IMG/VR virus record: IMGVR_UViG_3300032770_001058
Coordinates: 1-59,006 of that record
Length of the DNA stretch: 59,006 nt
Source: a virus
Lineage: Duplodnaviria > Caudoviricetes
Strand: one strand, 5' to 3'
In this document: positions 1,707 through 57,868 of the stretch, one piece after another
Layout: each line of letters begins with the position of its first letter
Numbering within the stretch: position 1 is the stretch's first letter
Notes under the pieces: generated by a model
The model's input: the letters and a program-made list of their open reading frames with translations, nothing else
Told to the model about the DNA's origin: nothing
Databases searched by the model: none
Translations under genes and position numbers: made by a program

Positions 1707-1855
1707 GCGGTTGCGGTAAATGGTACCTGAGCGTTCGGACACGACATTGGAGCATATACGACCGGGCTCAGCAACTTTTTTACGAGAGGCGGAAGACATG
1801 CTGCCCGCGCTCTCTTGAGGACCAAAACTCCGAGGAACGCGAGGGAGCGAGGCGC

Positions 1856-1893
1856 AAGAAAAAAGGGCCGCGAAGCATGAATGCTTCGCGGCC
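1856..1893 (-). terminator. Intrinsic terminator at the end of the late/lysis operon
   Basis: Perfect inverted repeat ggccgcgaagcat/atgcttcgcggcc (1866-1893) followed on the minus strand by a T run. Confidence 0.8.
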
Positions 1894-1910
1894 AAAAGGT
1901 TCGAGGGTGG

Positions 1911-1938
1911 GATATCGCGCGGATATCGAGCCGAACTC
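1911..1938. promoter_or_regulatory. 11-bp-phased GATATC-like repeat, site 1
   Basis: GATATC gcgcg GATATC gagcc GAACTC. Confidence 0.55.
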
Positions 1939-1947
1939 AGCCCGGCA

Positions 1948-2169
1948 TCAGGAAGGCTGCTGTCCTCCACTCGGAATCTTGCCCAGCCCGTAGAGAGTGG
2001 TGATGACACCCAGATGGGTCAGTACAGTCGCGTTCTCGACCATGTGACCGGTCAAATGCCAGAACCAGGCGTGCTGCCCCATGTAGAACAGCGCCCAGAG
2101 TCCGGCAAAGACGCGACCGAAAGATACGTCTCCGCTGGTCGAAACCATCTTGTTGAGAAATGATTTCAT
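1948..2169 (-). CDS. Small two-TM membrane protein, holin-like
   Basis: MKSFLNKMVS...SFGRVFAGLWALFY...LGVITTLYGLGK; last gene of the lysis cassette. Confidence 0.5.
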   Translation of the reverse strand: MKSFLNKMVSTSGDVSFGRVFAGLWALFYMGQHAWFWHLTGHMVENATVLTHLGVITTLYGLGKIPSGGQQPS

Positions 2170-36440: not shown

Positions 36441-36633
36441 GACGCTATTTCTTTCGTTCGGTTCCGCCCAGTTTAGCTCCCATGTTCGCGTTGCAGCCAC
36501 CATGACCGCCACCGAACAGGCGTTCGGCCCAGCGAACAGGCGTTCGAAAACGTCTCCCGAAAACCCGCGCCGCGCGTGGATTGTCTTTTGGGACAACAGC
36601 CGAAAACGCATACAAACGCTGAGAAAAAAGGGA

Positions 36634-36663
36634 TTGCGCGGCCTGCCGCCGGAGTCCCAGAAT
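36634..36663 (+). promoter_or_regulatory. Candidate sigma-70 promoter of the ribozyme operon
   Basis: TTGCGC-N18-CAGAAT with an A tract upstream. Confidence 0.35.
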
Positions 36664-36669
36664 TCCCGC

Positions 36670-37235
36670 AGTTGTTTGGCTGTTTGGCAAGCGGCAACCA
36701 ACCGCAGGAGAACGGGAAGTGCGGCAGACGCGACGAAACCGAAGCGGCAACCAACCGCAGGAGAGCCGCACTTCCCACCTACCTTGTGCCGCTGGCCACG
36801 GCGACCGTTCGAATCCCACAAACGGCGAAAGCACAGTTGCAACGCGCATCCTGTTCCGCTGGCCTTCGGGCCGGAACGGTAGCGATGCCTGCGCTGCGCC
36901 CTCGCCGCGCGTGTTCTGGCGAACGGTCGGGCTAAGGCTTTCACCAGTCGCTCTCGTCGCGGCGAATGCGGGCTGCGGCCATATCCGGCAGGCTGTACCT
37001 TCCCAAATCGCGTAGCAGGTGCCGATAACCCTGCGAACCCTAGCCTGAGGAACGGCTAGTCGGGACAACTCGAATCCCGGAAATCTCGGAGCGCGGCAAT
37101 CGCCACGATACGGCGCAGTTCAAGAGTTCCGCCCATGGCGGAATCGCCTACAAGGTCGCGGCGCAGTCAAAGAAGCGGCGCGCTAACGGTCATACCGACG
37201 AGACTAAGTGAGAAGAGCGCAAGCGACAAAAAACC
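36670..37235 (+). ncRNA. Putative large structured RNA or 5' leader
   Basis: No convincing ORF; dense helices including 36714-25/36765-76 (12 bp), a C-UUCG-G hairpin at 36861-72, 37040-45/37054-59, 37061-65/37075-79, 37127-33/37137-43 and long-range 36952-59/37196-203. Confidence 0.5.
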
Positions 37236-37236
37236 T

Positions 37237-37302
37237 TCCCGATACTGCCTGATGAGAACGGGACGAAACCGGCCCACATGACAGTGTGGGCACGGTCGCA
37301 GT
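37237..37302 (+). ncRNA. Hammerhead ribozyme HH1 (type I, pseudoknot); predicted cleavage after C37297
   Basis: Stem I ACTGC/GCAGT, core CTGATGA, G-aacggga-C, GAAA, extended stem III, GTC triplet; loop CGGGA is complementary to upstream TCCCG. Confidence 0.9.
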
Positions 37303-37334
37303 TAAGCCGCAACCAGCGGCAGGAGAATTCCGCG

Positions 37335-37856
37335 ATGACAAATAGTAGAGGTTCGCTCCGCTCGGTTTACACGGTGAAGCCGAAGTCGAATTCGAAGAAA
37401 TCCGCTTTCCGTCGCCAGATGGCCGCGCGGCACAGGGCACAGGATGCCGTGCCGACCAGCAAACCCGCAACCAGCCTGAAGCCGAAGAGCGCCGCGAATG
37501 GCTGGGATGACCCTGAAATCCGCGCAAAGCGGATTGCGGCCATTCGCGCCGCGCGCGCTGGTGTCACCGGCCAGCAGCCGACCGAAGAAAAGAAGATGCC
37601 GACTCCTCCGCCGCGTGACCCTGAGCTAGCTGCTGCTCAGGACGCGATCGCCAAGCATCAGTTCGCGATTCTGTCGAAGCTGCCTGCTGAAAGCGTGGTC
37701 AGGTATTACGACCTGGGCTGGCGTCATGCCCACCTGATGGAAGCGAAACCCGACCGCTGCCGACTCCGCTCGATTCCTGCCTACAGCCGCAAACCCGTCA
37801 CCTTCACTGTGCCGACTTCCGAAGTCGAGGCCTACAGCGCTCCCGCGACTGCCTGA
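37335..37856 (+). CDS. Hypothetical basic protein with WDDPEIR motif; ends PATA inside HH2
   Basis: AGGAG RBS at 37321 and ATG at 37335; its stop codon is the TGA of the HH2 core. Confidence 0.7.
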   Translation: MTNSRGSLRSVYTVKPKSNSKKSAFRRQMAARHRAQDAVPTSKPATSLKPKSAANGWDDPEIRAKRIAAIRAARAGVTGQQPTEEKKMPTPPPRDPELAAAQDAIAKHQFAILSKLPAESVVRYYDLGWRHAHLMEAKPDRCRLRSIPAYSRKPVTFTVPTSEVEAYSAPATA

Positions 37857-37895
37857 TGAGATCGGGACGAAACCGGCAACTCGCCGGTCGCAGTC
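37841..37895 (+). ncRNA. Hammerhead ribozyme HH2; predicted cleavage after C37889
   Basis: GACTGC-CTGATGA-G-atcggga-C-GAAA-ccggc-aactc-gccgg-TC-GCAGTC. Confidence 0.92.
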
Positions 37896-37929
37896 ATTTC
37901 AAGCCGCAACCAGCGGCAGGAGAACGATC

Positions 37930-38520
37930 GTGATTAAGAGGAACAAACCCGAAGAGCAGTTAATCCCCGCTGATCTGGACGCCATCGCGAAGAACGCCAT
38001 GTACTGGCAGATTGCCTCGCAGCATGCCGAGGAAATCTACAAAGAAGTGAAGGCTGACTTCTTCCAGCGCGTCGAGACTCACCCGCAAATTGAGATGGTC
38101 GTGGGCAAGAGCCTGAAAGTCTCCACCGGCAAGGTGCGCTGGCAGTCGCGCGAAAACTTCGACGTGCTCCAGGATGAGATCGAGAAGGCGCTGGAGTCGG
38201 GCCGCATCACCGTGCCTGTGCTGTTAGGAATGGTGAAGTCGTACGACACCGACGCGGTGCGCCAGTTCGTACCCGCTGCGGTCGTACCGAACGCGGAGAA
38301 GCCGGTCACCGAGTATGGCGTGATGGTCGCTTCGGCGGACTATAAGGCCGAAGTTCATGCCCAGGTCGATGAGCTGCTGAATCAGTCGCCCGCGCCTGCT
38401 GTGCTCCCGCCCAATGTCGCCGTGATGAAGCCTGCGGCCAGTGTGCCACTCACCGAGCAACTGGAAGCCTCGCTCGCCGATGCGAAGAAGAAACGCTCCC
38501 GCAAGCCCGCGACTGCCTGA
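37930..38520 (+). CDS. Hypothetical protein, weakly Gam/gp157-like; ends PATA inside HH3
   Basis: RBS plus GTG start; helical N-terminus then KSLKVSTGKVRW. The family assignment is weak. Confidence 0.5.
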   Translation: MIKRNKPEEQLIPADLDAIAKNAMYWQIASQHAEEIYKEVKADFFQRVETHPQIEMVVGKSLKVSTGKVRWQSRENFDVLQDEIEKALESGRITVPVLLGMVKSYDTDAVRQFVPAAVVPNAEKPVTEYGVMVASADYKAEVHAQVDELLNQSPAPAVLPPNVAVMKPAASVPLTEQLEASLADAKKKRSRKPATA

Positions 38521-38563
38521 TGAGAACGGACCGAAACCGGCGACCCACTCGCCGGTCGCAGTC
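38506..38563 (+). ncRNA. Hammerhead ribozyme HH3; predicted cleavage after C38557
   Basis: GACTGC-CTGATGA-G-aacggac-C-GAAA-ccggcga-cccac-tcgccgg-TC-GCAGTC; shorter pseudoknot (CCG/CGG). Confidence 0.88.
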
Positions 38564-38597
38564 AATTCAAGCCGCAACCAGCGGCAGGAGAACGCAA

Positions 38598-39464
38598 GTG
38601 CAAGACACAAGCACCAATTACCGCTACTACACCGCCGAACCGCTCACCAATGACCAGCTTCGCCGCGTCGCGCCGTCCATCTTCGCCGAGCGGCCATGGG
38701 CGGAAATGTCTGACCGCTACACCTTCATTCCCACCATCCGCATTGTCGAGGAGATGCGTAAGGAAGGGCTGGTGCCCTATTTCGCCAAGCAGACGATCTC
38801 GCCTGTCGAAGGGCGGACCCCCTTTGCCATGCACATGATTCGCTTCCGCGATACGTCGCAACGCGGCCAGAAGCTGGTCGTCGGCGACTTGTATCCGGAA
38901 GTGACTCTCATCAACTCACACGATGGCGGCGCCAGCTACCGGCTGATGGCTGCTCTGCTGCGCGCGGCTTGCATGAACGGCCTGATGGTCAGCGATTCCG
39001 AGTTCGCGGCCATTCACGTCATGCATCGCGGCAACGTCACTCCCGTGCTTGAGGCCAGCTTCCAGGTCATCGAGCAGTTCCCGAAGATCATGGGCGAAGT
39101 GGGCGAGTTCCAGCGCATCGAGCTCAAGCGCGACCAACAACTGGCGCTGGCCGAATCGGCGCTGGAATTGAAGTACGACGAGCGGGACGATGGTTCGCTC
39201 GCCTGCCCGATCACCGCCGACGCCGTACTGATGCCGCGCCGCTCCGACGACTCGAAGCCCACGCTATGGAACACATACAACGTGGTACAGGAAAACCTGA
39301 TGAAGGGCGGCCAGCGCGGCGTCATCATCGGCGCGAATCACCGCACTCGCCGCGTCAAGACGCGTCCGGTGAAGGCGATTGCCACGGATGTCAAGTTAAA
39401 CAAGGCGCTGTGGACATTGACGGCGAGGATGGCCGAGTTGGTCGGCGCTCCCGCAGCCGCGTAA
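38598..39464 (+). CDS. DUF932/DUF945 family protein
   Basis: PLTNDQLRRVAPSIFA.....SDRY.FIPT, H.IRFR, LINSHDG.ASY, R.AC.NGL, LW..YNV.QEN...GG, LN.ALW.L. Confidence 0.85.
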   Translation: MQDTSTNYRYYTAEPLTNDQLRRVAPSIFAERPWAEMSDRYTFIPTIRIVEEMRKEGLVPYFAKQTISPVEGRTPFAMHMIRFRDTSQRGQKLVVGDLYPEVTLINSHDGGASYRLMAALLRAACMNGLMVSDSEFAAIHVMHRGNVTPVLEASFQVIEQFPKIMGEVGEFQRIELKRDQQLALAESALELKYDERDDGSLACPITADAVLMPRRSDDSKPTLWNTYNVVQENLMKGGQRGVIIGANHRTRRVKTRPVKAIATDVKLNKALWTLTARMAELVGAPAAA

Positions 39465-39477
39465 TCATTTCGTCATG

Positions 39478-39503
39478 GCTGGCCCGCTCGCTCGCGGGCC
39501 AGC
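39478..39503 (+). terminator. GC-rich hairpin after the DUF932 gene, without a U tract
   Basis: gctggcccgc/gcgggccagc 10-bp stem; could be a pause or 3' stability element instead. Confidence 0.35.
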
Positions 39504-39542
39504 GCGACTCAAACCGCTGTACTACCGAATAGGAGAACGGTC

Positions 39543-39836
39543 ATGGCAAAGAAAAACGCAAACGGCTGGGACGACCCTGAAATCCGGCAGCGCCGCATCG
39601 ACGCAATCCGCGCGGCGCTGGCGAAGAAACCCGCAACGAAGAAGGCGAAGAAGGCCAGCAAGAGCAGCCCGAAGGCGAAGGCCAGCAAACCCGCGAAGAA
39701 GGCGAAGAAAGCCAGCCCGAAGCCTGCGGCGACTCAGGCGAAGCAGCAGCCCGACACCAAACTGGCGAAAGCGCTGCACACGCTCGAATCGCGCGTGAAG
39801 GTCACGCCCATCAACTCACTTCCCGCAACTGCCTGA
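39543..39836 (+). CDS. Small Lys/Ala-rich, histone H1-like protein with WDDPEIR motif; ends PATA inside HH4
   Basis: AGGAG RBS; KKPATKKAKKASK repeats. Confidence 0.75.
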   Translation: MAKKNANGWDDPEIRQRRIDAIRAALAKKPATKKAKKASKSSPKAKASKPAKKAKKASPKPAATQAKQQPDTKLAKALHTLESRVKVTPINSLPATA

Positions 39837-39876
39837 TGAGAGCGGGACGAAACCGGCCATCCGGCCGGTCGCAGTT
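39821..39876 (+). ncRNA. Hammerhead ribozyme HH4; predicted cleavage after C39870
   Basis: AACTGC-CTGATGA-G-agcggga-C-GAAA-ccggcc-atcc-ggccgg-TC-GCAGTT; pseudoknot TCCCGC/GCGGGA. Confidence 0.92.
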
Positions 39877-39905
39877 AAGCCGCAACCAGCGGCAGGAGAA
39901 CACCG

Positions 39906-41078
39906 ATGTTGGAACAACCGCTATCAGCCAGTCTCATCCTCACCAACGCCAAACACGATAAGGTCTTTCGCGCCTGGCTCATGCCGCAAGGCACGGGATG
40001 GGTGGTCAGAACCGAATGGGGCGCGCGCTCTGCCGGTAAACTCAGCTCGCAGGTGAAGCCCGACTCTCCGACGACCTATGAGGCCGCGAAGAAGATCTAC
40101 GACAAGAAAATCCGCGAGAAAACCGAGTTGCCGTGCTCCTGCGGCTGCGGCGACCGCTACCTGCAAACCCGCGTCGAAGCGGGCGAGCCGAAGCTGCAGC
40201 CGATCGATTGCACGGCGGCGCAGGCGGAGCAGGAACAGAAAGCCGAAGCTGTCGCTGGTCCGACAAGCTGGGCACCGCAACTGCTCGAACCCATCGAAGG
40301 AGAGCGCGGCAAGCTGCTGCTGGTCGGTGATGACCGCTACGGCGCGCAGGAGAAGTACGACGGTGTCTGTATTTCCCTATGGTGGGCGGAAGAGCAGCGC
40401 GCGCGCTGCTTCAACAAACTCGGCCAACTCCGCGACGTGCCCACCTACGTTGCCGACTCGCTGATCGCGCGCGCTCGTGAAGCCGAAGCGAAGTCATTTT
40501 GGGTTCACGGCGAGCTGCTTCCGAACGGCGGGCCGCTGGTCGTGCACGACCTGATGGAATGGAACGGCGACGATCAGCGCGGCGAAACCTATCGCGCACG
40601 CTTTGGGCTGGTCGCGACGTTCCTCGGCAACTGCCTGCATATCGCGATTCCGGAATTGATCACCGGAACGCATGCGAAGAGCGCGTTCGTCGCCGCACTC
40701 GCCGCGAAGCGGGCCGAAGGTGTCGTATTCAAGCGGCTCAATGCGCCGTACCTGCCCGGTCGTACGCAGCACTTCAAATTCAAATTCTGGCAGTCGGCCA
40801 CTTGCAAGGTCACTCCGAAGCGGAAGATCGACGGCAAGAATTCCCACGCCATCTCGGTGTTGCGCAAGGGGAAGCTGGTCGAAGTCGGCACCGTCACCGG
40901 CAAGAGCAGCGTACCGGCCCAGGTCGGCTCGCTGGTCGAAGTGAAATACCTTTATGTGGGTCATGGCGATCGCTTCGTGCAGCCCGAATTGCTGGGCCTG
41001 CGCGACGATCAGGCCCGGCCCGACGATTGGTCCACCCTCAAGCTGAAAGACACTCACCGGGAGGCGCGGTCATGCTAG
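39906..41078 (+). CDS. WGR-domain ATP-dependent DNA ligase
   Basis: N-terminal WGR-like domain (HDKVF, TEWGAR, A.K.YDK.I.EK); ligase motifs QEKYDG, HGEL, HDL, EGVVFK, KFK; OB fold EVKYLY...QP...RDD. Confidence 0.8.
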   Translation: MLEQPLSASLILTNAKHDKVFRAWLMPQGTGWVVRTEWGARSAGKLSSQVKPDSPTTYEAAKKIYDKKIREKTELPCSCGCGDRYLQTRVEAGEPKLQPIDCTAAQAEQEQKAEAVAGPTSWAPQLLEPIEGERGKLLLVGDDRYGAQEKYDGVCISLWWAEEQRARCFNKLGQLRDVPTYVADSLIARAREAEAKSFWVHGELLPNGGPLVVHDLMEWNGDDQRGETYRARFGLVATFLGNCLHIAIPELITGTHAKSAFVAALAAKRAEGVVFKRLNAPYLPGRTQHFKFKFWQSATCKVTPKRKIDGKNSHAISVLRKGKLVEVGTVTGKSSVPAQVGSLVEVKYLYVGHGDRFVQPELLGLRDDQARPDDWSTLKLKDTHREARSC

Positions 41079-41296
41079 TCCACGTCTTCCGCTTCCCCTC
41101 ACCCGAGCTTGACGAATGCGCGACGACCATAAGAGCAGCTATCCGCGCTCACTGGCGCCGGGAGATCACCTTCGCCGAATACCTGGCGGTGAGAGATGCT
41201 GCACATGCGAAGTGCGAGCATGTATTGCTCCGCATCTTTGCCGCCCTGGACCGCTCGGACGACCGGCCCGAGGTCTCCGAACGGCTGGCGGCATGA
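41072..41296 (+). CDS. Hypothetical protein (74 aa)
   Basis: GGAGG RBS; ATG overlaps the end of the ligase gene. Confidence 0.55.
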   Translation: MLVHVFRFPSPELDECATTIRAAIRAHWRREITFAEYLAVRDAAHAKCEHVLLRIFAALDRSDDRPEVSERLAA

Positions 41297-41299
41297 CCT

Positions 41300-41357
41300 T
41301 CCCGCAACTGCCTGAGAGAACGGGACGAAACCGGCGACTCGTTCGCCGGTCGCAGTT
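41300..41357 (+). ncRNA. Hammerhead ribozyme HH5, degenerate (core CTGA-GA lacks position 7)
   Basis: AACTGC-CTGAGA-G-aacggga-C-GAAA-ccggcga-ctcgt-tcgccgg-TC-GCAGTT. Confidence 0.75.
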
Positions 41358-41385
41358 AAGCCGCAACCAGCGGCAGGAGAACGCT

Positions 41386-41547
41386 ATGAGATGCCCGTTT
41401 TGCCACGGTGAGATCGACGAGCAATACAGCCTGCTCGATCAATGCCAGCGGTTAGAGCAGGAACGCTGGCAGCGCGAATTCGACGCCGGACTCCGGCGAT
41501 TGGTCGAAACCGTCGATAAAGTCATGGCCAAAGTCGGCCACGCATAG
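41386..41547 (+). CDS. Hypothetical 53-aa protein with N-terminal CxxC
   Basis: Follows the conserved hairpin plus AGGAG; starts MRCPFCHG. Confidence 0.6.
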   Translation: MRCPFCHGEIDEQYSLLDQCQRLEQERWQREFDAGLRRLVETVDKVMAKVGHA

Positions 41548-41621
41548 GCGCTGTGCTGTATCTCGGCCAGCAATAACTTCCACCTTCAACAAAGCTGCTT
41601 ACTCGCAGCAGGAGAATTCAT

Positions 41622-43349
41622 ATGTCTACGACAACAGTTGCAGTCCTGCCTGTAAACCGAAAGAAAGCCGACGCGCTGGACGTTCAGATGCTGCCGATCG
41701 GCGTCCTCACCCTCTCCGAAACCAATCCGCGCTCCGGGATGGACGCAACCGAGCTCGACGAGCTGGCCAAATCTATTCTCGACCACGGAATCCTGCAGCC
41801 GCTGGTCGTGCGGCCACATCCAGGCGTCGTCGTGGTGGAGTCCAGCGTCCCGGGCCGCTGGTATGCCGCTTATGAGAACGGCACCGACCATCCCAATCTG
41901 ATCGGCACCGGCCACGAAAAGAAGGCAGAGGCTGAGGCCGAAGCGGCTGGCATTCGCCGCTGGGAGATCATCGCCGGCGCGCGGCGCTATAAGGCCGCGA
42001 AGCTGGCGAAGCTGCGCGAGGTTCCATGCCGCATCGTGCGCGTTAGCAATCAGGAAGCGCGCGACATTCAGATCATCGAAAACCTGCAGCGCACCGACAT
42101 TCACCCGCTGGATGAAGCCGAAGCTTTCGTGCAACTGCTCGGCTCAAGCGGCGACATCAAGGCTCTGGCGAAGCGCGTTGCCAAGCCTGAACTCTATGTG
42201 CGGCGCCGTCTCTCCCTGCACGAGTTGATCGAGCCTGCGAAGAAGGCGTTCCGGGAGCATCGCATCTTCCCGGGCCACGCCTATCAACTCAGCCGATTCC
42301 CGACGAACGCGCAGAAGGCAGTCTGGAAGCAGTTAGAGGGCAAAGACGTCACCCCCAATCAACTGCGCAAGGCCATCGCCGACAATTTCACCCTGAAACT
42401 GTCGGGCGCGCCATTCGATACCGGCGATGCGAAGCTGCTCGAAGCGGCGGGAAGCTGCACCGACTGCCCGAAGCGCACCGGCAACAATCCGCTGCTGTTC
42501 TCCGACATCAAGGCGGCCGACACCTGCACCGACCGCGACTGCTACAGCCGTAAGGTGGAAGCCCATCTCGTGCAGATCGCAACGAAGCTGGAAAAGGCCA
42601 GCGGGAAGCCGGTCCTGCGTCTGTCGGAGAAGTTCCAACCAACCATCAAGGGCGCGCTCTCCAGCGGCCAGTGGCATCGCTGCGACCGCGCGTCAGAATG
42701 TGCTCATGCGCAGCAAGGCATCATCGTGGAGACCGATTATTACGGCTCCGGCCCGAAGAAGCTGGGCCAGACGATCACCGTCTGTGCGACGAAGGAGTGC
42801 AAGTTTCACTTCGGCTCGCACACTGGGGAGTCGGCTGAGTCGATGCAGGAGCGGGAGCGCACGAAGCGCCGCGTGGTGAAGCAGAAGGTCGGGGTCAATA
42901 AGGCCGTCTTTACCGCCGTGCAGGAGAAGATGCCCGGAGTCCTGGGCGCCGAAGAGCTGCGCCTGATCGGGCGCGAACTGTTCCAGCGCGTTTACGGGCC
43001 TTATCGCAATCGCATCGCCCGCGACGTGTACCAGCTCGAACCCAAGATCGTGAAGAGCCACTACGTCACGACCGGCGGCACGACGAAGGATTACGCCGCT
43101 GCGCTGCTGGCGAAGCTGCCGGAGATGAACGCGAAGGAACTGACCCGCTTCTGCCTGATCTCGCTTACCGCGGGTAACGCCTACACTCCGCCGCTGTACA
43201 CCAATTCCAGCGCCGAGCCGGAGAATCCGCTCTACACCCTCGCCAAACTCTACAAGGTGGACGCTCGTTCCATCCGCGAGAAGATCGTCACCACTGATCG
43301 CGAGAAGGCGAAAGCAAAGAAGGCGACGAGAGCCGCGAAAGCCGCTTAA
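41622..43349 (+). CDS. Large ParB/RepB/Spo0J-family protein with Cys-rich middle region
   Basis: NPR...ELA.SI...GILQPLVVRP, IIAGARRYKAA, IIENLQR.DIHPLDEA.AF; C..CPKR, C.D..CY. Confidence 0.85.
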   Translation: MSTTTVAVLPVNRKKADALDVQMLPIGVLTLSETNPRSGMDATELDELAKSILDHGILQPLVVRPHPGVVVVESSVPGRWYAAYENGTDHPNLIGTGHEKKAEAEAEAAGIRRWEIIAGARRYKAAKLAKLREVPCRIVRVSNQEARDIQIIENLQRTDIHPLDEAEAFVQLLGSSGDIKALAKRVAKPELYVRRRLSLHELIEPAKKAFREHRIFPGHAYQLSRFPTNAQKAVWKQLEGKDVTPNQLRKAIADNFTLKLSGAPFDTGDAKLLEAAGSCTDCPKRTGNNPLLFSDIKAADTCTDRDCYSRKVEAHLVQIATKLEKASGKPVLRLSEKFQPTIKGALSSGQWHRCDRASECAHAQQGIIVETDYYGSGPKKLGQTITVCATKECKFHFGSHTGESAESMQERERTKRRVVKQKVGVNKAVFTAVQEKMPGVLGAEELRLIGRELFQRVYGPYRNRIARDVYQLEPKIVKSHYVTTGGTTKDYAAALLAKLPEMNAKELTRFCLISLTAGNAYTPPLYTNSSAEPENPLYTLAKLYKVDARSIREKIVTTDREKAKAKKATRAAKAA

Positions 43350-44821: not shown

Positions 44822-45026
44822 TATAATCGAGATTCCACAAAGCGGCAACCAGCCGCTGGAGCATCCCTAATGCCAGCCGCTAAAGCTTGATCTCCGTCCG
44901 TGCGACTCCGCGCGTGCGGAGCGTGAACGGGGGTGGTACCCTGCCAAGCCCGCTACGTCAAGGCGGGAAGCCGTAGGCCGCGTTCGCGCGGCCTGCGCAC
45001 TTTTAAGCGGTCACCAACCGCAGGAG
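44822..45026 (+). promoter_or_regulatory. Structured leader of the AAA gene: TATAAT, AACCA hairpin, 6-codon ORF, terminator-like hairpin, second hairpin plus RBS
   Basis: TATAAT 44822-27; agcggc-aacca-gccgct 44841-57; MPAAKA* 44870-90; stem 44972-97 with UUCG loop then cacTTTT; gcgg-tcaccaa-ccgc-AGGAG 45007-26. Confidence 0.45.
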
Positions 45027-45032
45027 AACGAG

Positions 45033-45926
45033 ATGCGTCATCAGGAGATATTTGACTCCGACCCTCAGTCCGAGATGGACCTGGGCCAACCCAAACAGAA
45101 TGCCATCCAGTTTCCCGTCACTCTTGCCGAACGCTACCAGCCGCGCCACATCGCCGAATTCATCGGCTTAGAACATCCCAAGCGGCTGCTCACCAACCTG
45201 ATCGCCAAGCCTCGACCATGCCCTCTGCTCTTCATCGGCCCGCCTGGAGCTGGGAAGACCGCGATGGGCGTGACCTTCGCGGTCGAACTACCCGGCGCGC
45301 TGCACCATGTCAGCGCGCAAAAGTGCGATGTCGCGGCACTGGACGCGCTGGGCGAGAAATTCTCCTACATCCCGCCCAGGGGCCGATTCTGGATTTCGCT
45401 GATTGACGAAGCCGACCAAATGACCGAGAAGGCGCAACTGCAACTGCTATCCCGCTTGGATGGGACAGCCGCACTGCGGCCGGTATTCGGTGGCGGATTT
45501 GAACGCGGCGAGCCGTTGCCGATCATCTGGATTTTCACGGCTAACGGTCGAGGGTCAAAGCAGATAGAGCCGCCATACAGTTTCGCGTCCCGCTTCCTCT
45601 CGCGCTGTATGATCGTGCCCTTCGAACTCCCGACTCAGGCTGAACTCGCCGCGTATCTGCGCAAACTGTGGGAATTGGAAGGCGGTGGGCCGACGCCCGC
45701 CGACTATTTCGACTACATCGCCGACGACTGCGCTGTCCGCGATGCCCTGATGAAACTCGAAGTCGATCTGCTGGCCGGCCCGCGCGCGCGACCTGTGCCG
45801 GAGATCACCGACCAGCCTCAACCGAAACCGGTAACTTGTGACCGAGGAGCAAACCAATGGGACGACCCGGAAATTCGCAAACGCCGAATCGAAGGAATCC
45901 GCGCGGCTATGGCGAAAAGAAAGTAA
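45033..45926 (+). CDS. AAA+ ATPase of the clamp-loader clade with C-terminal WDDPEIR motif
   Basis: LAERYQP....EFIG, GPPGAGKT, IDEADQMT..AQ..LL, FTAN, FLSRC, VRDAL..LE. Confidence 0.8.
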   Translation: MRHQEIFDSDPQSEMDLGQPKQNAIQFPVTLAERYQPRHIAEFIGLEHPKRLLTNLIAKPRPCPLLFIGPPGAGKTAMGVTFAVELPGALHHVSAQKCDVAALDALGEKFSYIPPRGRFWISLIDEADQMTEKAQLQLLSRLDGTAALRPVFGGGFERGEPLPIIWIFTANGRGSKQIEPPYSFASRFLSRCMIVPFELPTQAELAAYLRKLWELEGGGPTPADYFDYIADDCAVRDALMKLEVDLLAGPRARPVPEITDQPQPKPVTCDRGANQWDDPEIRKRRIEGIRAAMAKRK

Positions 45927-49333: not shown

Positions 49334-50437
49334 TTAACTTTCCAGCTTGCGCATGGCAGCAACGACATCCGGATCGAGCGTCTTGATGTAACACTTCTGC
49401 GTGACGCTCACATTCGAGTGGCGCAAGATGCGCTGAATGACGTTATCTGAGACGCCGAGATGATGAAGAACAGTCGCCAGGCCCCGCCGGAAAGCGTGCC
49501 AGCCGTGCCAAGCCAGACCGTGGCCGGCCAGAGTCGGTGCAATCACCTTGCGCGCCAGCACATCGAGGTTGATGGGCGCGCCGCTGGCGCTTTGGAAAAT
49601 CAACCCGCTCGGCTGTTGAAGCCGATTGAGCCGGTCCGCGAGCTGGGCAATTACCGGGATCGGCGCTTTGCTCGTCTTAGTCTTGGGTTCGAGCTGATGA
49701 CTGCGCCAGAAGGTCCGCTGCACCTTTAGTTGCTCGCCATCGTAATCTTCCCAGCGAAACCCGCGAATCTCGCTCTTGCGAGCTCCCGTAAACGCTGCGA
49801 CTGTTACGATCGTCGCGGCGGGATCGTCGAGAACCGCGATCATCTGCTGAATTTCGGCCAGGCTGTAGGCGTAGGTTTCGGCGGCGGGTTTTGCCTTCGG
49901 CAGCTCGACATCATGCATCGGGTTCGGCGTGTTGATGATGCCGAGCCGCTTTGCCGCGTGGAAGGCCCCGCTGAGAAATGCCTTGATGTGGCGCAACGTT
50001 GTGATACTCAGATCACGCGCGCGCTGCAGCTCGGCCAGAATGCGCTCTCCGGTCGCAATGTCGAAGTCGCGCAGCACAATTGCCGCGTGCGGCTTCAAGT
50101 ACAACAGCCACATGTTGCGGTAGCCGCGAAACGTGCTGATGCGCTTCTGCGACTCGACTGCCGGAAGGTAGATTTCTTCGACAAACTGTCCGAGAGTTGT
50201 GTTCGCTAGTGGCGCCCGGGCTTCATTCTTCGGCGCAATAAATTCGTCGGCCAGAGTCCGGGCCGCGCCCTTCGTCTTATAGTCGCCGATCGCGGCAGCG
50301 AGCCGATGCGTAACTCGCCTGCGCTGGAGGCTGCCATCAGGAAGCCTCACCGTCTCGCGGTAACGCAGGAACCATGTATTGCCTTTCTTGAAGAGAAAAC
50401 CGCGCTGATGGCGCGTACGCTGCCTACTCACATACAT
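49334..50437 (-). CDS. int: Tyrosine recombinase / integrase
   Basis: Arm-binding N-terminus (QRG.L.K....W.LRYRE); catalytic TGARKSE, K (PKT), HAFRR, LRH, Y. Confidence 0.9.
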   Translation of the reverse strand: MYVSRQRTRHQRGFLFKKGNTWFLRYRETVRLPDGSLQRRRVTHRLAAAIGDYKTKGAARTLADEFIAPKNEARAPLANTTLGQFVEEIYLPAVESQKRISTFRGYRNMWLLYLKPHAAIVLRDFDIATGERILAELQRARDLSITTLRHIKAFLSGAFHAAKRLGIINTPNPMHDVELPKAKPAAETYAYSLAEIQQMIAVLDDPAATIVTVAAFTGARKSEIRGFRWEDYDGEQLKVQRTFWRSHQLEPKTKTSKAPIPVIAQLADRLNRLQQPSGLIFQSASGAPINLDVLARKVIAPTLAGHGLAWHGWHAFRRGLATVLHHLGVSDNVIQRILRHSNVSVTQKCYIKTLDPDVVAAMRKLES

Positions 50438-50885
50438 GCGGAGTTTGTGAGACGATTCGATCCGCCCAGCTCGCGCGGCCCTGTAGCGGGTCCCATTCCT
50501 CAACTTTGTCCTGGGCGGCCCGGACGCGGCCGGCACTGATGTAAGACTCGTGACTGCCGCGCTCCCAATCATCGAAGATCGTGCACGGCAGTCCGACATT
50601 GGCAAGAACGTCCGCGAGCGTTATCGAGGCAGGATTGTTTGCGGATTTGCTAGGCGGAGGAGGAACAGGGAGGAGCGCGATCGCGCGGACTCGCTGCGCG
50701 ACCGCGCCTGCGTAGCGGAGAATGCGGGCCTTGCCTTGGGCCAGAAGCTGCACCGCTCGATCTGCCGGAATGTAGCGAACGAACTGCTCGAATTCATCGT
50801 GAAGTCCAACATTGAACCGATTGTTTCGCATGTGCGCCCCTAAAAGTAACGGCCCGTCGCCGATGACGGGCCTCAATTGACTCAT
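50424..50885 (-). CDS. Hypothetical protein
   Basis: Overlaps the integrase start; no family recognised. Confidence 0.4.
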   Translation of the reverse strand: MSQLRPVIGDGPLLLGAHMRNNRFNVGLHDEFEQFVRYIPADRAVQLLAQGKARILRYAGAVAQRVRAIALLPVPPPPSKSANNPASITLADVLANVGLPCTIFDDWERGSHESYISAGRVRAAQDKVEEWDPLQGRASWADRIVSQTPHVCE

Positions 50886-52274: not shown

Positions 52275-54974
52275 ATGCCCCGAGGCAAAGCGAGCGGTCG
52301 GAAACCGTCCAAGCGCCCCATCGAACGATACGAGCACACGGACAAGAAACGGATCAATAACCCGCCGGTAGGTCTGGTGAACCCGGAGACGGAACCGCCT
52401 CTGCCAACGCATAAAACCTACCAGTACCCCCACCCGGTCCCAACAGTAAAGCCCGGCAAGGACCTGGACTACGATCCGCACCTCGATCCGCAGCTCGTGT
52501 GGGCCGGCAAGAAGGAGCATACGTCATTCGAGGTGCCGACCGTCTCCCTGCATGTCCACGAACGAATAGACCCGCGGACAATCATGGAGGCGGTGCGCAA
52601 GCGCAATGGCAACGGAGCCGCTGCACAGCCGTCGTTGTTCGAGCGGCGGGAGGAGAATCCACCGTTCCGCGAAGCGATTGACTTCTACCGCCACGCGCAC
52701 GGCTGGTCAAACCGGTTGATTGCCGGCGACTCGCTGCTGGTCATGAACTCGCTTTTGGAGAAAGAAGGCATGGCCGGGCAGGTGCAGATGGTCTATGTCG
52801 ACCCGCCGTATGGAATCAAGTACGGCTCGAACTTCCAGCCATTCGTTAACAAGAAAACAGTATCTCCCTCCGATAAAGACGAGGATCTGACGCAAGAACC
52901 CGAAATGCTGCATGCGTTTCGCGATACCTGGGAACTCGGTGTCCATTCGTACCTGACGTACTTGAGGGATAGGCTCCTGGTTGCAAGAGACTTGCTTCAC
53001 AGCTCTGGTTCGTGCTTCCTCCAGATAAGCGACCAGAATCTTCATCTCGTCAGAAGTCTGCTGGACGACATTTTTGGCGCCAACAACTTCATCGCACTGC
53101 TTTCGTTTCAGAAGAAGGGCAGCCAGTCGGGGGACTTCGTTCCCTCTATACACGAGTACATCGTGTGGTACGCCAAAGATAAGTCAGTCGCAAAGTTCCG
53201 GCGCCTGTACAGACCGCGCGATTTGGCGGGCATCGGAGGTTCTGGGTTTGAGTACCTGATGTTAGCCGACGCAACGATTCGTAATCTAACTGAGGACGAG
53301 AAGCTCGGTAATAGTCCTCTACCGGACGGTGCGCGAGCCTTTCGGTACAATCCCTTGTTCAGTGCTAAACCTGGGCCGAATGAACCCGTCGAAATTGATG
53401 GAACACCTTACCCATCCGGCGGTAATTCCTGGAAGGTAAATCCCGCAAAAATTCCACTGCTCTACAAAATCGGCAGAATCGTAAAACAGAAAACGCGCCT
53501 AGTGTATCTGCGATATGCCGATGATTTCGACTACGTACCGCTCACGAACATCTGGGGTGGTATCGGTGGATCTCCGGACAAGGTATATGTTGTCCAGACT
53601 AATCCCGTCATACTGAAGAGATGCATCTTGATGACCACTGACCCAGGCGACTTGGTTCTCGATCCGACCTGCGGCTCGGGCACCACGGCCTATGTCGCCG
53701 AGGAGTGGGGGCGGCGCTGGATCACCTGCGACACCTCGCGCGTGGCGGTCACCCTAGCTAAGCAGCGGCTGATGACCGCCGACTTCGATTATTACGAGTT
53801 GCAGCACCCCGATGAGGGGGTAGGCAGTGGATTCCAATACAAAAAGGTGCCTCACATCACTCTCAAGTCCATTGCAAACAATCCTGAGATTCGCGAGGGC
53901 ATGTCTTCTGAGCAAATCGATGCAGCCATTACTAGGTATGCCGACCGAGAAGACCTGTACGATCAACCGTTCATAGACAAGAAGCGTGTTCGAGTGACTG
54001 GTCCATTTACGGTAGAGGCCGTTCCTGCTCCGACGGTGCAATCACTGGAGGATATCCAGGTCGGCGTGGGCGCCGCCGCGACGGCATCAGGCAGCGCGCA
54101 GCAATCCATCGGCGACTTCCGCCATGCGGCCACGCCCCTGCTGGACACCTCAATCGCTCGTTCCGGCCCGACTCTGCGCCACACCGAGTGGCGCGACGAA
54201 TTGCTAAAGACCGGCCTGCGCGGCAAGGGTGGGCACCACATCGACTTCTCGCGGGTCGAGCCTCTGGCCGGCACGCGCTGGCTCCATGCCGATGCGGAGA
54301 CCAAAGGCATAAAGCCAGAGCGCGTCGTCATCTCCTTCGGTCCTGAGCACAGCCTGCTCGACAGCAATCAAGTCGAACTGGCCTGGAAGGAGGCGCGGAT
54401 GCTGGTGCCGCGCCCTGACATCCTCGTTTTTGCGGCTTTCGAGTTCGATCCCGAAGCGGCGAAAGACATCGATGAGCTAACAAAAGACAAGGCCGGCATG
54501 ACACTGCTCAGTGCGCAGATGAACGCCGACCTGCTCACGGAGGATCTGAAAAAGAAGCGGGCCTCGAACCAGAGCTTCTGGCTGGTGGGACGCCCGGACG
54601 TTGAACTGCGCCAGATCGGCAAGGGCGAGCACAAGGGTAAATGGGAAGTGGAAGTGGGCGGCTTCGACTACTACAACACGCGTACAGGCACCATCGAATC
54701 GGGCGACACGTCGCGCATTGCCATATGGCTGTTTGACCCAGACTACGACGGCCGCAGCCTTTATCCGCGCCAGGTATTCTTCCCAATGGCCGACGAGGAC
54801 GAGGGCTGGACTAGGCTGGCGCGCAACCTGAAGGCGGAGATCGATCCAGACCTGATCGAGGCTTATCGCGGAACGACTTCGCTACCGTTTGACCCTGGCC
54901 CGCACAAGCAAGTTGCGGTGAAGGTCATTGACGATCGAGGCATTGAAAGCCTAAAAGTCGTGGATGTGAAGTGA
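52275..54974 (+). CDS. mod: Type III R-M modification methyltransferase (beta class)
   Basis: NRLI.GDSL, YVDPPYGI, AT-richer central target-recognition region, VLDPTCGSGTTA, KVID.RG.E. Confidence 0.88.
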   Translation: MPRGKASGRKPSKRPIERYEHTDKKRINNPPVGLVNPETEPPLPTHKTYQYPHPVPTVKPGKDLDYDPHLDPQLVWAGKKEHTSFEVPTVSLHVHERIDPRTIMEAVRKRNGNGAAAQPSLFERREENPPFREAIDFYRHAHGWSNRLIAGDSLLVMNSLLEKEGMAGQVQMVYVDPPYGIKYGSNFQPFVNKKTVSPSDKDEDLTQEPEMLHAFRDTWELGVHSYLTYLRDRLLVARDLLHSSGSCFLQISDQNLHLVRSLLDDIFGANNFIALLSFQKKGSQSGDFVPSIHEYIVWYAKDKSVAKFRRLYRPRDLAGIGGSGFEYLMLADATIRNLTEDEKLGNSPLPDGARAFRYNPLFSAKPGPNEPVEIDGTPYPSGGNSWKVNPAKIPLLYKIGRIVKQKTRLVYLRYADDFDYVPLTNIWGGIGGSPDKVYVVQTNPVILKRCILMTTDPGDLVLDPTCGSGTTAYVAEEWGRRWITCDTSRVAVTLAKQRLMTADFDYYELQHPDEGVGSGFQYKKVPHITLKSIANNPEIREGMSSEQIDAAITRYADREDLYDQPFIDKKRVRVTGPFTVEAVPAPTVQSLEDIQVGVGAAATASGSAQQSIGDFRHAATPLLDTSIARSGPTLRHTEWRDELLKTGLRGKGGHHIDFSRVEPLAGTRWLHADAETKGIKPERVVISFGPEHSLLDSNQVELAWKEARMLVPRPDILVFAAFEFDPEAAKDIDELTKDKAGMTLLSAQMNADLLTEDLKKKRASNQSFWLVGRPDVELRQIGKGEHKGKWEVEVGGFDYYNTRTGTIESGDTSRIAIWLFDPDYDGRSLYPRQVFFPMADEDEGWTRLARNLKAEIDPDLIEAYRGTTSLPFDPGPHKQVAVKVIDDRGIESLKVVDVK

Positions 54975-57868
54975 CCATGAGCACAGCGCCGCAGCAGGGC
55001 AAGACAACAATTGATCAGCTCATCATCAACTCCCCGTACGAGGAGCCACAGGAGCATTGGCGGTATCACCGGGAAACTCGGCTGTTTACGCGCGAGCAGG
55101 AGCGGAGAAAGGCTGGCTATGTGCGCGCTTCGGAATCATCGCGCTCTTTCGATGACCCAGGAATCTTCGTTGAGCTGCCGTTGGTCAACCAGATCAGGCC
55201 GCGAGTAACCGCGTGGCGTGAAGCTGGGTACGCCGGAGCGAGCGGTATCACACGCAGGCTGTTACAACACTGGCACGATACCGAGCAGCGCGACACGAAT
55301 CGCCGATTCTTCTTCTGCCAACTGGAGGCAATCGAAACTCTGATCTGGCTGACGGAGGCTCCGGCTTCAGAGCGCGTCGGCATTGAGCTTCCCGGAGATG
55401 GAGGGCCGTTCAGCCGGCTCTGCTGCAAGATGGCAACGGGCTCCGGCAAGACGATCCTGATGGCGATGTTGATTGCATGGCAGGTGCTCAACAAAGTCAC
55501 CTATCCACAGGACAAGCGCTTCTCCAAGAACGTTCTGCTGATTGCTCCTGGCCTAACGGTAAAGAAACGGTTGGAAGTGCTGATACCCGGCTCGCCGGGC
55601 AACTATTACGTCGAGTTCCAGATTGTCCCGCCCGGTCTCGAAGACAAGATGCGGCAAGGGGCGAGTTGCCATGTACTCATCCGCAACTGGCACATGCTGG
55701 ATTGGGACACGGACGAGCAGATCAGCAAGAGGCGCACCGTCGACAAGCGCGGAGCTAAGAGCGACGAGGCCTATGTACGAGACGTACTGGAAGATATGGC
55801 CTCGGCGCAGAACATCGTGGTGATCAATGACGAGGCGCACCACGCGTGGCGTGTTCCCCCCAAGTCCCGAGTGGCCGGTGTCTCTAAAGATGAGGTAAAC
55901 GAGGCGACAAAGTGGGTTGGCGGCCTCGACCGCATTCATCGCGCGAGAGGGATTCTCTCCTGCTTCGACTTGACTGCCACTCCTTTCGCGCCGACCGGCA
56001 AGAAGAGCGGCGAGGAGACCCTATTCGGCTGGATTGTGAGCGACTTCGGATTGAACGATGCGATTGAGTCCGGGCTCGTGAAAACCCCCAGGGTGGTAGT
56101 ACGCGACGACGGCAAGCTGGACAGCAAGTACCGCTCGCGTTTCTATCACATCTACAGTGACCCTGAAGTCAAAACAGACGTAAACCGCAAAGCTGAGCCG
56201 GAGGCGCCGCTACCCGATCTGGTGCGGACTGGCTACTACTTCCTCGGCAAGGACTGGCTGGAAACGGCGAAGAAGTGGAAGAAAGAGAGTAGGCAGCCTA
56301 CGCCGCCCGTGATGATCACGGTCGCGAATACCACATACACCGCGGCGCGCGTTGAATATGCGTTCACGCGCAAGCGAATCACCATTGATGAGCTATGCAA
56401 GCCGGAGCGCATCCTTCACATCGATTCCAAAGTCCTCGCGCAGGCTGAAGAGGAAGACGAACCACCCGTGCAGCTCGGGTTAGCACAAACAGACAACGAG
56501 GATGAGAACTCGGAGGAGGGCGGCGGGGAACCTGAAAACGGTCAGCATCGAGCCAAGAAGCTGTCCAAGAAAGAACAGGCGGAGCTACTACGGCGGAAGG
56601 TGGACACAGTCGGGCGCAAAGGCGAGCCGGGGGAGCAAGTTCAAAATGTGATCTCCGTCGGTATGCTCTCAGAAGGCTGGGACGCCAAGACAGTCACGCA
56701 TATTATGGGCCTGCGTGCATTCACGTCCCAGCTCCTCTGCGAACAGGTAGTCGGGCGCGGGCTGCGTCGAACATCGTATGAGGTGAACGAGCAAACTGGA
56801 CTGTTCCAACCGGAGTACGTAAACATTTTCGGCGTGCCGTTTACGTTTCTGCCTCACGAAGGCGGCGGAGATGAACCACCGCCTCCTCCGCCCTCACCAA
56901 AAACAAGGATTGAAGCGTTACCAGAACGGAAATCTTACGAGATCGTCTGGCCCAATGTAATGCGGATCGACCATGATTATCGGCCGACGCTGACGCTCGA
57001 TTTACTGAAAGTGAAACGATTGGTCCTGGATGCGTACGAGAGTCCGCTGCTGGCGGAGTTAGCGCCAACAATCGACGGTAAGCCGGATGTCAGACATATC
57101 TCAGAGATCGATCTCCGGAAGAAGCTCGGGGACGAATACCGGATGCAGAAGGTAATTTTCACCGCGGCCGGCGACATTTATGAGCAGATGAAGAAGACTT
57201 GGAAGGGCAGCAAGGAATATTTGCTATCGCAGGTGATTCGAATAGTCGAGCAGTACATCGAGAGCGACAGGGTTCGCATTGACCCACCGCTGTTTAACCA
57301 GGACCCAGTACGCCGAAGAATCATCATCACGCTGCAGATGGGGAAAGTGGCTGAGGAACTAAAGCAGGCCATCCACTTCGATAACACGCTGGCGCTCGTC
57401 CCCGTTTTCGATTCCGAGAGGCCGGTCCGCGCGACTGGCGACATGCTCCCCTGGTACACCGGGAAGCCTTGCGAGCACACGAGACATTCCCACATTAATA
57501 TGAGCGTGTTCGACAGCCGATGGGAGGCAAGCGAAGCGTTTGAGCTCGATCGCAGCGAGCATGTTGCGGCTTGGGTAAAAAACGACCACTTGGGATTCGA
57601 GATCACTTACTCATTTCGCGGTATCATCCGCAAGTTTCGACCCGACTACCTAGTTCGCTTGATCAATGGAAAAATGCTGGTGCTCGAAGTCAAGGGGCAA
57701 GATAATCACGAGCAGCAGACAAAGCGGGAGTTCTTAGCTGAATGGGTTAGAGCCATCAACGGACACGGCGGATTCGGGCTCTGGGCGGCTGATGTGTCGC
57801 GGAATCCGACCGACATTCACGAGATTTTAGCGAAGCAGAACGCGGACGTCTCTGTGCGAAATTCTTAG
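54971..57868 (+). CDS. res: Type III R-M restriction subunit
   Basis: CQLEAIET, KMATGSGKT, NDEAHH, TATPF, MLSEGWD, EQVVGRGLRR; nuclease PDYLV...LEVKG. Confidence 0.88.
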   Translation: MTMSTAPQQGKTTIDQLIINSPYEEPQEHWRYHRETRLFTREQERRKAGYVRASESSRSFDDPGIFVELPLVNQIRPRVTAWREAGYAGASGITRRLLQHWHDTEQRDTNRRFFFCQLEAIETLIWLTEAPASERVGIELPGDGGPFSRLCCKMATGSGKTILMAMLIAWQVLNKVTYPQDKRFSKNVLLIAPGLTVKKRLEVLIPGSPGNYYVEFQIVPPGLEDKMRQGASCHVLIRNWHMLDWDTDEQISKRRTVDKRGAKSDEAYVRDVLEDMASAQNIVVINDEAHHAWRVPPKSRVAGVSKDEVNEATKWVGGLDRIHRARGILSCFDLTATPFAPTGKKSGEETLFGWIVSDFGLNDAIESGLVKTPRVVVRDDGKLDSKYRSRFYHIYSDPEVKTDVNRKAEPEAPLPDLVRTGYYFLGKDWLETAKKWKKESRQPTPPVMITVANTTYTAARVEYAFTRKRITIDELCKPERILHIDSKVLAQAEEEDEPPVQLGLAQTDNEDENSEEGGGEPENGQHRAKKLSKKEQAELLRRKVDTVGRKGEPGEQVQNVISVGMLSEGWDAKTVTHIMGLRAFTSQLLCEQVVGRGLRRTSYEVNEQTGLFQPEYVNIFGVPFTFLPHEGGGDEPPPPPPSPKTRIEALPERKSYEIVWPNVMRIDHDYRPTLTLDLLKVKRLVLDAYESPLLAELAPTIDGKPDVRHISEIDLRKKLGDEYRMQKVIFTAAGDIYEQMKKTWKGSKEYLLSQVIRIVEQYIESDRVRIDPPLFNQDPVRRRIIITLQMGKVAEELKQAIHFDNTLALVPVFDSERPVRATGDMLPWYTGKPCEHTRHSHINMSVFDSRWEASEAFELDRSEHVAAWVKNDHLGFEITYSFRGIIRKFRPDYLVRLINGKMLVLEVKGQDNHEQQTKREFLAEWVRAINGHGGFGLWAADVSRNPTDIHEILAKQNADVSVRNS

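Follow-up and report, generated by a model that had tools for sequence, protein, structure and literature searches.

Predicted compact hammerhead ribozymes joined to a hairpin-Shine-Dalgarno leader in the early operon of a wetland prophage

The stretch of DNA analysed here, IMG/VR record IMGVR_UViG_3300032770_001058 (59,006 nucleotides (nt), the window), is an entire provirus of 59 kb from a wetland source, and is a temperate tailed prophage. Its early operon contains five junction units (U1-U5; 37235-41381, plus strand), in front of genes g1, g2, g3, g5 and g7, in which what is very probably a hammerhead ribozyme, with cleavage predicted, is followed by a short hairpin, a Shine-Dalgarno (SD) sequence and a start codon. 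The explanation that we prefer, at a probability of about 60 %, is that these predicted self-cutting units would provide a standard 5' leader for internal genes and would also act as cassette repeats. New are the compact pseudoknot variant of the ribozyme, which is missed by the Rfam model, its fusion with a stop codon, and the NACCA hairpin-SD leader, which is found paired with two hammerhead types.

Results

Architecture of the junction units

The order of elements is common to the five units: a hammerhead core, a GUC cut site, GCAGU, 3-8 nt, the hairpin GCCGC-AACCA-GCGGC, AGGAGAA and a start codon. The predicted 3' products begin with GCAGU at 37298, 37890, 38558, 39871 and 41352 in U1-U5, respectively. 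The spacer between GCAGU and the hairpin is UAA in U1, U4 and U5, CAUUUCAA in U2 and CAAUUCAA in U3, the latter two having the form CA(U/A)UUCAA. The distance from AGGAGAA to the start codon is 7, 5, 5, 5 and 4 nt in U1-U5, and the codons are AUG, GUG, GUG, AUG and AUG. The 22-mer formed by the hairpin and AGGAGAA occurs in five exact copies, compared to 0.00 expected from 100 shuffles.

The original prediction, made from the DNA letters, had likened the units to the synthetic RiboJ insulator. The layout that it gave for the 3' products, with the start codon 4-7 nt after AGGAGAA, was found to be exact in five of five units, and the order of ribozyme, hairpin and ribosome-binding site (RBS) is the same as that of RiboJ in the available part of PMC6206723. 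At the level of architecture the analogy holds in all five units.

Fold and class of the ribozyme

Read from the 5' side, each unit consists of (U/G)CCCG(C), 1-2 nt, ACUGC, CUGAUGAG, a 7-nt loop, CGAAAC, a variable hairpin, GUC and GCAGU. This is the layout of a compact type I hammerhead in which stem II is cut down to the G10.1-C11.1 pair and the 7-nt loop II forms a pseudoknot with the CCCG strand located 1-2 nt upstream of stem I. The usual stem II helix of at least two pairs is not found, and the loop II pseudoknot is in place, as in RAGATH-1. When the units were compared to the hammerhead core (C3 U4 G5 A6 N7 G8 A9, G12 A13 A14, A15.1-U16.1, H17), U1-U4 fitted at all positions, and U5 failed, N7 being missing (CUGA-GAG). 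The U5 copy is probably impaired; its orthologue in a related contig (L191) is intact. In U3, A38530 breaks one pseudoknot pair; the U3 orthologue in L165 is intact. Relatives carry the pairing G at this position, as confirmed by DNA contigs of four runs aligned to the region. An apparent joint 41296->37841 in the aligned run contigs was rejected, as repeat similarity accounts for it.

A search of the whole window with Rfam at the gathering threshold gave no matches. In E-value mode, RF03152 (RAGATH-1-hammerhead) was the best Rfam match for U1, U2 and U4, with 25.8-26.5 bits compared to a threshold of 56.3, and these matches span model positions 24/26-77 only, i.e. the 3' two thirds, while U3 and U5 gave no RF03152 match at E up to 10. 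The one-pair stem II and the 7-nt pseudoknot loop of RF03152 are both present in the window units. The 5' hairpin of the model (positions 2-18), the loop of which pairs with loop II, is absent from them and only a strand of 5-6 nt is found. With a covariance model (R1) built from a seed of 26 units, including the window's own, exactly five sites were found in the window, at 67.5-73.1 bits, and the next best site had 12.5 bits. A mis-spaced core pattern was searched for in the window and nothing was found. The non-circular hammerhead permutation (PMC10085705) was ruled out, the block order here being the standard C-G-S.

Relatives and covariation

A metagenome scan for the compact hammerhead gave 37 stretches; 42 units from the window and these stretches passed a stem filter, and R1 matched 51 sites in 44 sources. 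In 43 distinct family members 96.9 % of the cells were paired, compared to 25-44 % with the partners slid, and changes on both sides were seen in six of six stem I pairs and two of the four counted stem III pairs, in an alignment that is fitted to the model and biased towards structure. A view independent of this alignment is provided by contigs 92-96 % identical to the window, in which the ribozyme differs at N7 (U to C), at H17 (C to A or U), in loop II and in stem III. The variants at N7 and H17 stay within the allowed hammerhead letters, and the stem III changes are fully compensated, two stem III helices having been swapped outright with pairing kept. The pseudoknot pairs also covary (UCCCG/CGGGA, GCCCG/CGGGC, UCCCGC/GCGGGA, CCCGG/CCGGG and CCUAG/CUAGG), for example from U-A to G-C. 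Core rules and covariation strongly support the hammerhead that the original prediction had proposed.

Classical RAGATH-1 members (L012, L166 and L167) pass the RF03152 threshold and carry the 5' hairpin with its loop pairing with loop II; none of 12 GC-rich compact loci searched with RF03152 reached the threshold. Classical RAGATH-1 hammerheads were also seen in AT-rich phage contigs (L163, L167, L170, L012 and L026), with pistol ribozymes 400-700 nt away. In L012 the RAGATH-1 copy has in addition a type III hammerhead 40 nt away, and L026, a DUF932 element, contains a twister-P5 ribozyme as well as a hammerhead followed by AGGAGG. Among 80 DUF932-encoding viral loci (36-46 % identity) the only hammerheads were unrelated ones, in L026 and L047/L048.

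Sister compact hammerheads were found in L156 (three units), L158/L193, L164, L175 (two units), L181, L183, L192 and L196/L199. Their stem I is CCUCCC/GGGAGG (GGGAGA in L183). The 3' strand of this stem doubles as the SD for the gene that follows, the start codon of which is found 12-16 nt 3' of the cut. As the SD is the 3' strand of stem I, the ribosome site of a sister unit would be paired until cleavage. PHROGs applied to 10 neighbours of sister units returned one weak family and added nothing on their context.

In GTDB genome contigs (59 stretches) none of 60 matches to the core pattern had a stem I of at least 4 and a stem III of at least 3 pairs, and these matches were set aside as chance, except for one element (L139 2753-3126, also L174 and L182). 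This element consists of 336-nt units repeated in tandem and has a hammerhead-like core and a pseudoknot CCCGC/GCGGG, but its stem I is unpaired beside the core.

The hairpin-SD leader module

The leader can be described as a module consisting of AA, a 5-bp stem, NACCA, the second stem strand and (A/U)GGAG. The window has nine copies of it, all on the plus strand between 36.7 and 45.0 kb, and four of the nine are without a ribozyme; a variant module at 41594 has the same geometry with another loop. When 41 GGAG-start pairs on the two strands were scanned, a hairpin at an offset of one base from GGAG was seen in this operon only. When strains are compared, 2 of 120 positions of the 24-nt block are variable and 345 of 3843 in coding sequence (Fisher p = 0.0026), and the hairpin is part of the minimum-energy fold in five of five 3' products and four of five precursors.

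The module was also found in other IMG/VR contigs (L200/L262, L201, L202, L229, L246, L247, L257 and L259). A scan with three stem pairs left free gave at least 122 matches in at least 119 stretches. Among the matches listed, 16 of 122 were fully complementary compared to 6.4 expected (p = 7e-4). These 16 are enriched for the AA flank (eight of 16) and for an open reading frame (ORF) of at least 40 codons behind the match (12 of 16, and 23 of 106 for the others); four of them look like chance inside coding sequence. The scan statistic is the only unbiased evidence for module pairing; all five stem pairs also covary in 21 distinct module copies, which were chosen for pairing. In nine other module loci R1 found no compact hammerhead. 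The hairpin-SD pattern matched 1 of 401 and 0 of 401 genomes in two phylum samples, and no host was called. Pairing of the loop with the 3' end of 16S ribosomal RNA was dropped by eye, the arrangement not being colinear. As judged from these comparisons of sequences, the hairpin-SD is a leader module in its own right, conserved in this phage group.

Across the phage contigs the stem varies and covaries, while ACCA of the loop and the flanking AA are constant. It is conceivable, although rather unlikely, that the NACCA hairpin is an operator for an RNA-binding translational regulator, of phage or host, which would switch the early genes jointly, with the ribozymes only separating the cistrons. 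Such an operator would be in line with the constant loop and flank, with a block far more conserved than coding sequence and with folding models that give no accessibility benefit. No candidate binding protein was identified, however, and the module at 41594 keeps the geometry with the loop UUACUC, suggesting that shape rather than loop sequence matters.

We consider it highly improbable that the inverted repeat works as DNA, for example as a site for the ParB-like protein or for a repressor, instead of forming an RNA hairpin. Nine to ten copies do occur within 8.5 kb around a ParB-like gene, but all have one orientation and abut AGGAG at a fixed one-base offset, the arms change compensatorily (C-G to G-C to U-A) so that base identity is lost, and the structural operon has no copy.

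In two of the other contigs promoter-like sites that match 10 of 12 consensus positions precede the module, which starts 9 nt (L257) and 14 nt (L202) behind their -10 element. Also in L202 (1604-1682, minus strand), an Rfam Hammerhead_II match (39.7 bits, threshold 37) is followed by two bases and then by another copy of the NACCA hairpin-SD module. The proposal in the original prediction that each gene obtains a standard translation start gains indirect support from these positions near promoter-like sites and behind a type II hammerhead. Elsewhere the module is located near the 5' ends of transcripts, and it is therefore most likely that the ribozymes equip internal genes with the same short 5'-proximal leader as genes next to a promoter. 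L257 (1242-1320, plus strand) also carries a twister-P5 ribozyme that ends 12 nt ahead of AGGAGG-N4-AUG.

Stop codons and gene cassettes

The stop codons of g1, g2 and g4 are the UGA of CUGAUGA in U2, U3 and U4, respectively, and the sequence of the pseudoknot strand and stem I supplies the last codons of these genes (P-A-T-A). A strain variant (L159, reverse strand) has an extra 103-codon ORF between the orthologues of g1 and g2, flanked by two units and ending in ...L-P-E-T-A-stop, again with the core UGA as stop.

The shared stop codons (last codons P-x-T-A) would fit translation-gated cleavage for differential decay, in which ribosomes at the core UGA keep the ribozyme unfolded, and poorly translated upstream cistrons are cut off and degraded, tuning product ratios; differing stabilities after processing are named as an open idea in the accessible portion of a review (PMC6765202). 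No ORF ends inside the core of U1 or U5, however, and sister units have 17-28 nt between the upstream stop and the core. We regard such gating as unlikely.

The extra ORF of L159, bounded by two units, indicates that the units behave as cassette junctions, and suggests cassette gain or loss in this strain through recombination at the units. It could be argued that the units are chiefly recombination junctions that shuffle cassettes, with cleavage and hairpin having little effect on expression. In addition to the L159 cassette, the 76-92 % likeness of the units within the genome, the frequent ending of assembled contigs at units and the lesions in two of the five window copies are compatible with this. 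It is nevertheless given a low probability: the variation obeys hammerhead rules and stays compensated, and the exact offset of the module to SD and start codon is kept in unrelated contigs.

Genomic setting

The coordinates of the units, leaders and genes are given in Table 1. By Pfam, the tape-measure, capsid, S49 protease, portal and TerL genes are on the minus strand at about 16.5-35.0 kb and an integrase gene is located at 49334-50605, while the junction units sit in a divergent plus-strand early operon at about 36.7-46 kb. GenBank phages did not match the unit, and TerL identity to them was at most 45 %.

The operon leader (36444-37234, about 790 nt) contains two hairpin-SD copies, the second enclosed by an 11-nt inverted repeat (36714-36724 / 36766-36776), and a possible 98-codon ORF starting at GUG 36719. 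It varies among strains at 93 of 722 positions, more than coding sequence. A GC hairpin of 10 bp without a U tract (39478-39504) lies 3' of g3. A coding motif, ...NGWDDPEIR...RI.AIRAA..., is repeated at 37494-37561, 39558-39625 and 45849-45916 (repeat family D5) and is thus found in g1, in g4 and where the AAA ATPase gene region ends. Defence-type genes are found at the prophage ends (1062-2009, minus strand; 52275-57868, plus strand; 57894-59006, minus strand), the types being a DarT single-stranded DNA ADP-ribosyltransferase domain, an N6/N4 methylase beside a ResIII helicase, and a NucS-like nuclease domain.

Table 1 Coordinates of junction units, predicted ribozymes, leader modules and genes in the window
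Feature	Position	Strand	Remarks
U1 unit	37235-37327	+	
U1 hammerhead	37237-37302	+	predicted cut after C37297; long stem III; RF03152 26.5 bits, R1 68.5 bits
U1 hammerhead parts			pseudoknot strand UCCCG 37237-37241; stem I ACUGC/GCAGU; core CUGAUGAG 37249-37256; loop II AACGGGA
U1 leader	37306-37337	+	hairpin 37306-37320; AGGAGAA 37321-37327; AUG 37335 of g1
U2 unit	37839-37924	+	
U2 hammerhead	37841-37894	+	predicted cut after C37889; core UGA 37854-37856 = g1 stop; R1 72.7 bits
U2 leader	37903-37932	+	hairpin 37903-37917; AGGAGAA 37918-37924; GUG 37930 of g2
U3 unit	38503-38592	+	
U3 hammerhead	38505-38562	+	predicted cut after C38557; core UGA 38518-38520 = g2 stop; R1 67.8 bits
U3 leader	38571-38600	+	hairpin 38571-38585; AGGAGAA 38586-38592; GUG 38598 of g3
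U4 unit	39819-39900	+	
U4 hammerhead	39821-39875	+	predicted cut after C39870; pseudoknot UCCCGC/GCGGGA; core UGA 39834-39836 = g4 stop; R1 73.1 bits
U4 leader	39879-39908	+	hairpin 39879-39893; AGGAGAA 39894-39900; AUG 39906 of g5
U5 unit	41298-41381	+	
U5 hammerhead-like copy	41300-41356	+	predicted cut after C41351; core CUGA-GAG; R1 67.5 bits
U5 leader	41360-41388	+	hairpin 41360-41374; AGGAGAA 41375-41381; AUG 41386 of g7
Ribozyme-free module	36691-36712	+	GCGGC AACCA ACCGC AGGAGAA; operon leader; GUG at 36719
Ribozyme-free module, second leader copy	36744-36765	+	AGGAGAG
Variant module before g8	41594-41624	+	GCUGC UUACUC GCAGC; AGGAGAA 41610-41616; AUG 41622; no ribozyme
Module with compensated stem	44842-44863	+	GCGGC AACCA GCCGC, then UGGAG; no long ORF behind; no ribozyme
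Module with compensated stem	45007-45035	+	GCGGU CACCA ACCGC; AGGAGAA; AUG 45033, AAA ATPase gene; no ribozyme
g1	37335-37856	+	start AUG, behind U1
g2	37930-38520	+	start GUG, behind U2
g3	38598-39464	+	DUF932; start GUG, behind U3
g4	39543-39836	+	AGGAGAA present; neither hairpin module nor ribozyme in front
g5	39906-41078	+	weak ATP-dependent ligase match; start AUG, behind U4
g6	41063-41296	+	
g7	41386-41547	+	start AUG, behind U5
g8	41622-43349	+	ParB-like; start AUG, behind variant module
AAA ATPase gene	45033-45926	+	start AUG, behind ribozyme-free module copy

Discussion

Consequences for translation and messenger RNA

Hammerhead cleavage leaves a 5'-OH on the 3' product and a 2',3'-cyclic phosphate on the 5' product. 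Ends of this type are not readily degraded by 5'-monophosphate-dependent RNase E or through tailing-assisted 3' decay. No terminator-like site was found on the plus strand between 36.6 and 43.5 kb, and the early operon is for this reason probably one long RNA; a scan of the operon for promoters and terminators gave matches at chance level. Under the explanation preferred here, each unit in this RNA would cleave itself after GUC. The upstream cistron would then carry the ribozyme at its 3' end, the cyclic phosphate lying two bases beyond stem III, and the downstream cistron would open with a 5'-OH on GCAGU, followed by 3-8 nt, the 5-bp NACCA hairpin, AGGAGAA and the start codon. In this manner the translation start of each gene, and perhaps its stability, would be uncoupled from the RNA upstream, and the units would double as repeats for the gain and loss of gene cassettes.

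A more far-reaching version, which we hold only tentatively and consider clearly the less probable, is that the unit is a portable junction of about 90 nt (stop codon of the upstream gene, self-cutting ribozyme, 3' end capped by a hairpin and bearing a cyclic phosphate, and 5' leader) making every gene an autonomous messenger RNA (mRNA). The NACCA hairpin abutting AGGAGAA would then be an undescribed translation-start motif of soil and wetland phages, recognised by a dedicated factor or by the ribosome platform, and accessory genes would be swapped through recombination at the junctions.

Several observations weigh against a benefit of this kind for translation or mRNA stability. In partition-function models neither cleavage nor the hairpin gave a consistent gain in SD exposure: modelled SD accessibility was 0.25-0.51 in the 3' products compared to 0.22-0.60 in the precursors, it did not change consistently when the hairpin was forced open, and in U2 and U3 part of the SD is predicted to be paired with the spacer, which is longer there. 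The 3' products have 8-13 unpaired nt ahead of the hairpin, which may exceed the limit for classical protection by a 5'-terminal stem-loop. Nor is the hairpin tied to the ribozyme, as the window has 4-5 ribozyme-free sites and the sister ribozymes are without the hairpin. The missing N7 of U5 and the pseudoknot mismatch of U3 imply that cleavage may be dispensable for g7 and g3, or that the prophage copy is decaying. As an upstream ORF ends inside the core in three units, terminating ribosomes would unfold the ribozyme there. Furthermore, expression of an engineered twister construct was lowered by a stem-loop immediately 5' of the SD, at the standby site (PMC5052635). A RiboJ-like function of the units, i.e. 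context independence and mRNA stabilisation, is plausible by analogy.

Comparison with known systems

Clustered prophage hammerheads have been known since 2011, so that the locus represents a known kind of system, in a new variant and as a new composite. Perreault et al. (2011; PMC3088659, available in part) described clustered hammerheads between single prophage genes, with in vitro cleavage for three arrays, and proposed that polycistronic RNA is processed into single-gene mRNAs. Those arrays resemble the present one in having several hammerheads among the single genes of a prophage operon, near anti-restriction-type genes. Here, by comparison, the ribozyme has the pseudoknot form with a 1-bp stem II and is fused to a hairpin-SD leader and, in three of the units, also to the stop codon of the gene upstream; the part of PMC3088659 that was available makes no mention of a conserved hairpin-SD leader. 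The purpose of bacterial and phage hammerheads was still described as open in the accessible portion of the 2019 review (PMC6765202).

The closest class is RAGATH-1 (RF03152), which has the same core, the type I layout, and the G10.1-C11.1 pair closing a 7-nt loop II that is paired upstream. In classical members, however, the upstream partner is a 5' hairpin located 10-16 nt before stem I, while in the window units it is a single strand 1-2 nt before it. The main text of Weinberg 2017 (PMC5737381) contains no RAGATH-1 passage.

RiboJ consists of the sTRSV hammerhead and a 23-nt hairpin (Clifton et al. 2018; PMC6206723). Common to RiboJ and the units are the order of ribozyme, hairpin and RBS, and the short hairpin-bearing leader that is all the gene keeps after the cut. 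RiboJ is, on the other hand, engineered, is built on another type of hammerhead, has a longer hairpin and follows promoters, while the window units lie between cistrons, overlap the upstream stop in three cases and have a hairpin that is a separate natural motif.

The SD has been masked in hammerhead and twister stems by engineering (Wieland and Hartig 2008, as cited in the available part of PMC5052635). The GGGAGG of the sister units is similar, and cleavage would free their SD. The window has no such layout; its units have ACUGC/GCAGU as stem I, and their SD is found 24-29 nt 3' of the cut.

A short GC hairpin near the 5' end is also a feature of the 5'-terminal stem-loops that stabilise RNA against RNase E, and the predicted 5'-OH would lack the monophosphate that activates this enzyme; the units differ from these stabilisers in the 8-13 unpaired nt already mentioned. 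A literature search gave no paper on a natural composite of ribozyme, hairpin and RBS, or on a NACCA hairpin beside an SD, and no account of the compact pseudoknot variant, of its fusion to an upstream stop codon or of the occurrence of the leader with two hammerhead types.

The locus offers a clean test case, with five near-identical junctions, two natural mutants (U3 and U5), strain variants and a cassette polymorphism. The ribozyme-free use of the module makes it possible to tell apart what cleavage and what the hairpin contribute to translation and mRNA lifetime. The sister units, in which the SD appears to be masked in stem I, are a natural counterpart of engineered SD-masking ribozyme switches. 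If the explanation preferred here is true, the locus would be a source of compact natural parts for insulators and of a new pseudoknot hammerhead scaffold, and phages would themselves have reached the design principle of RiboJ.

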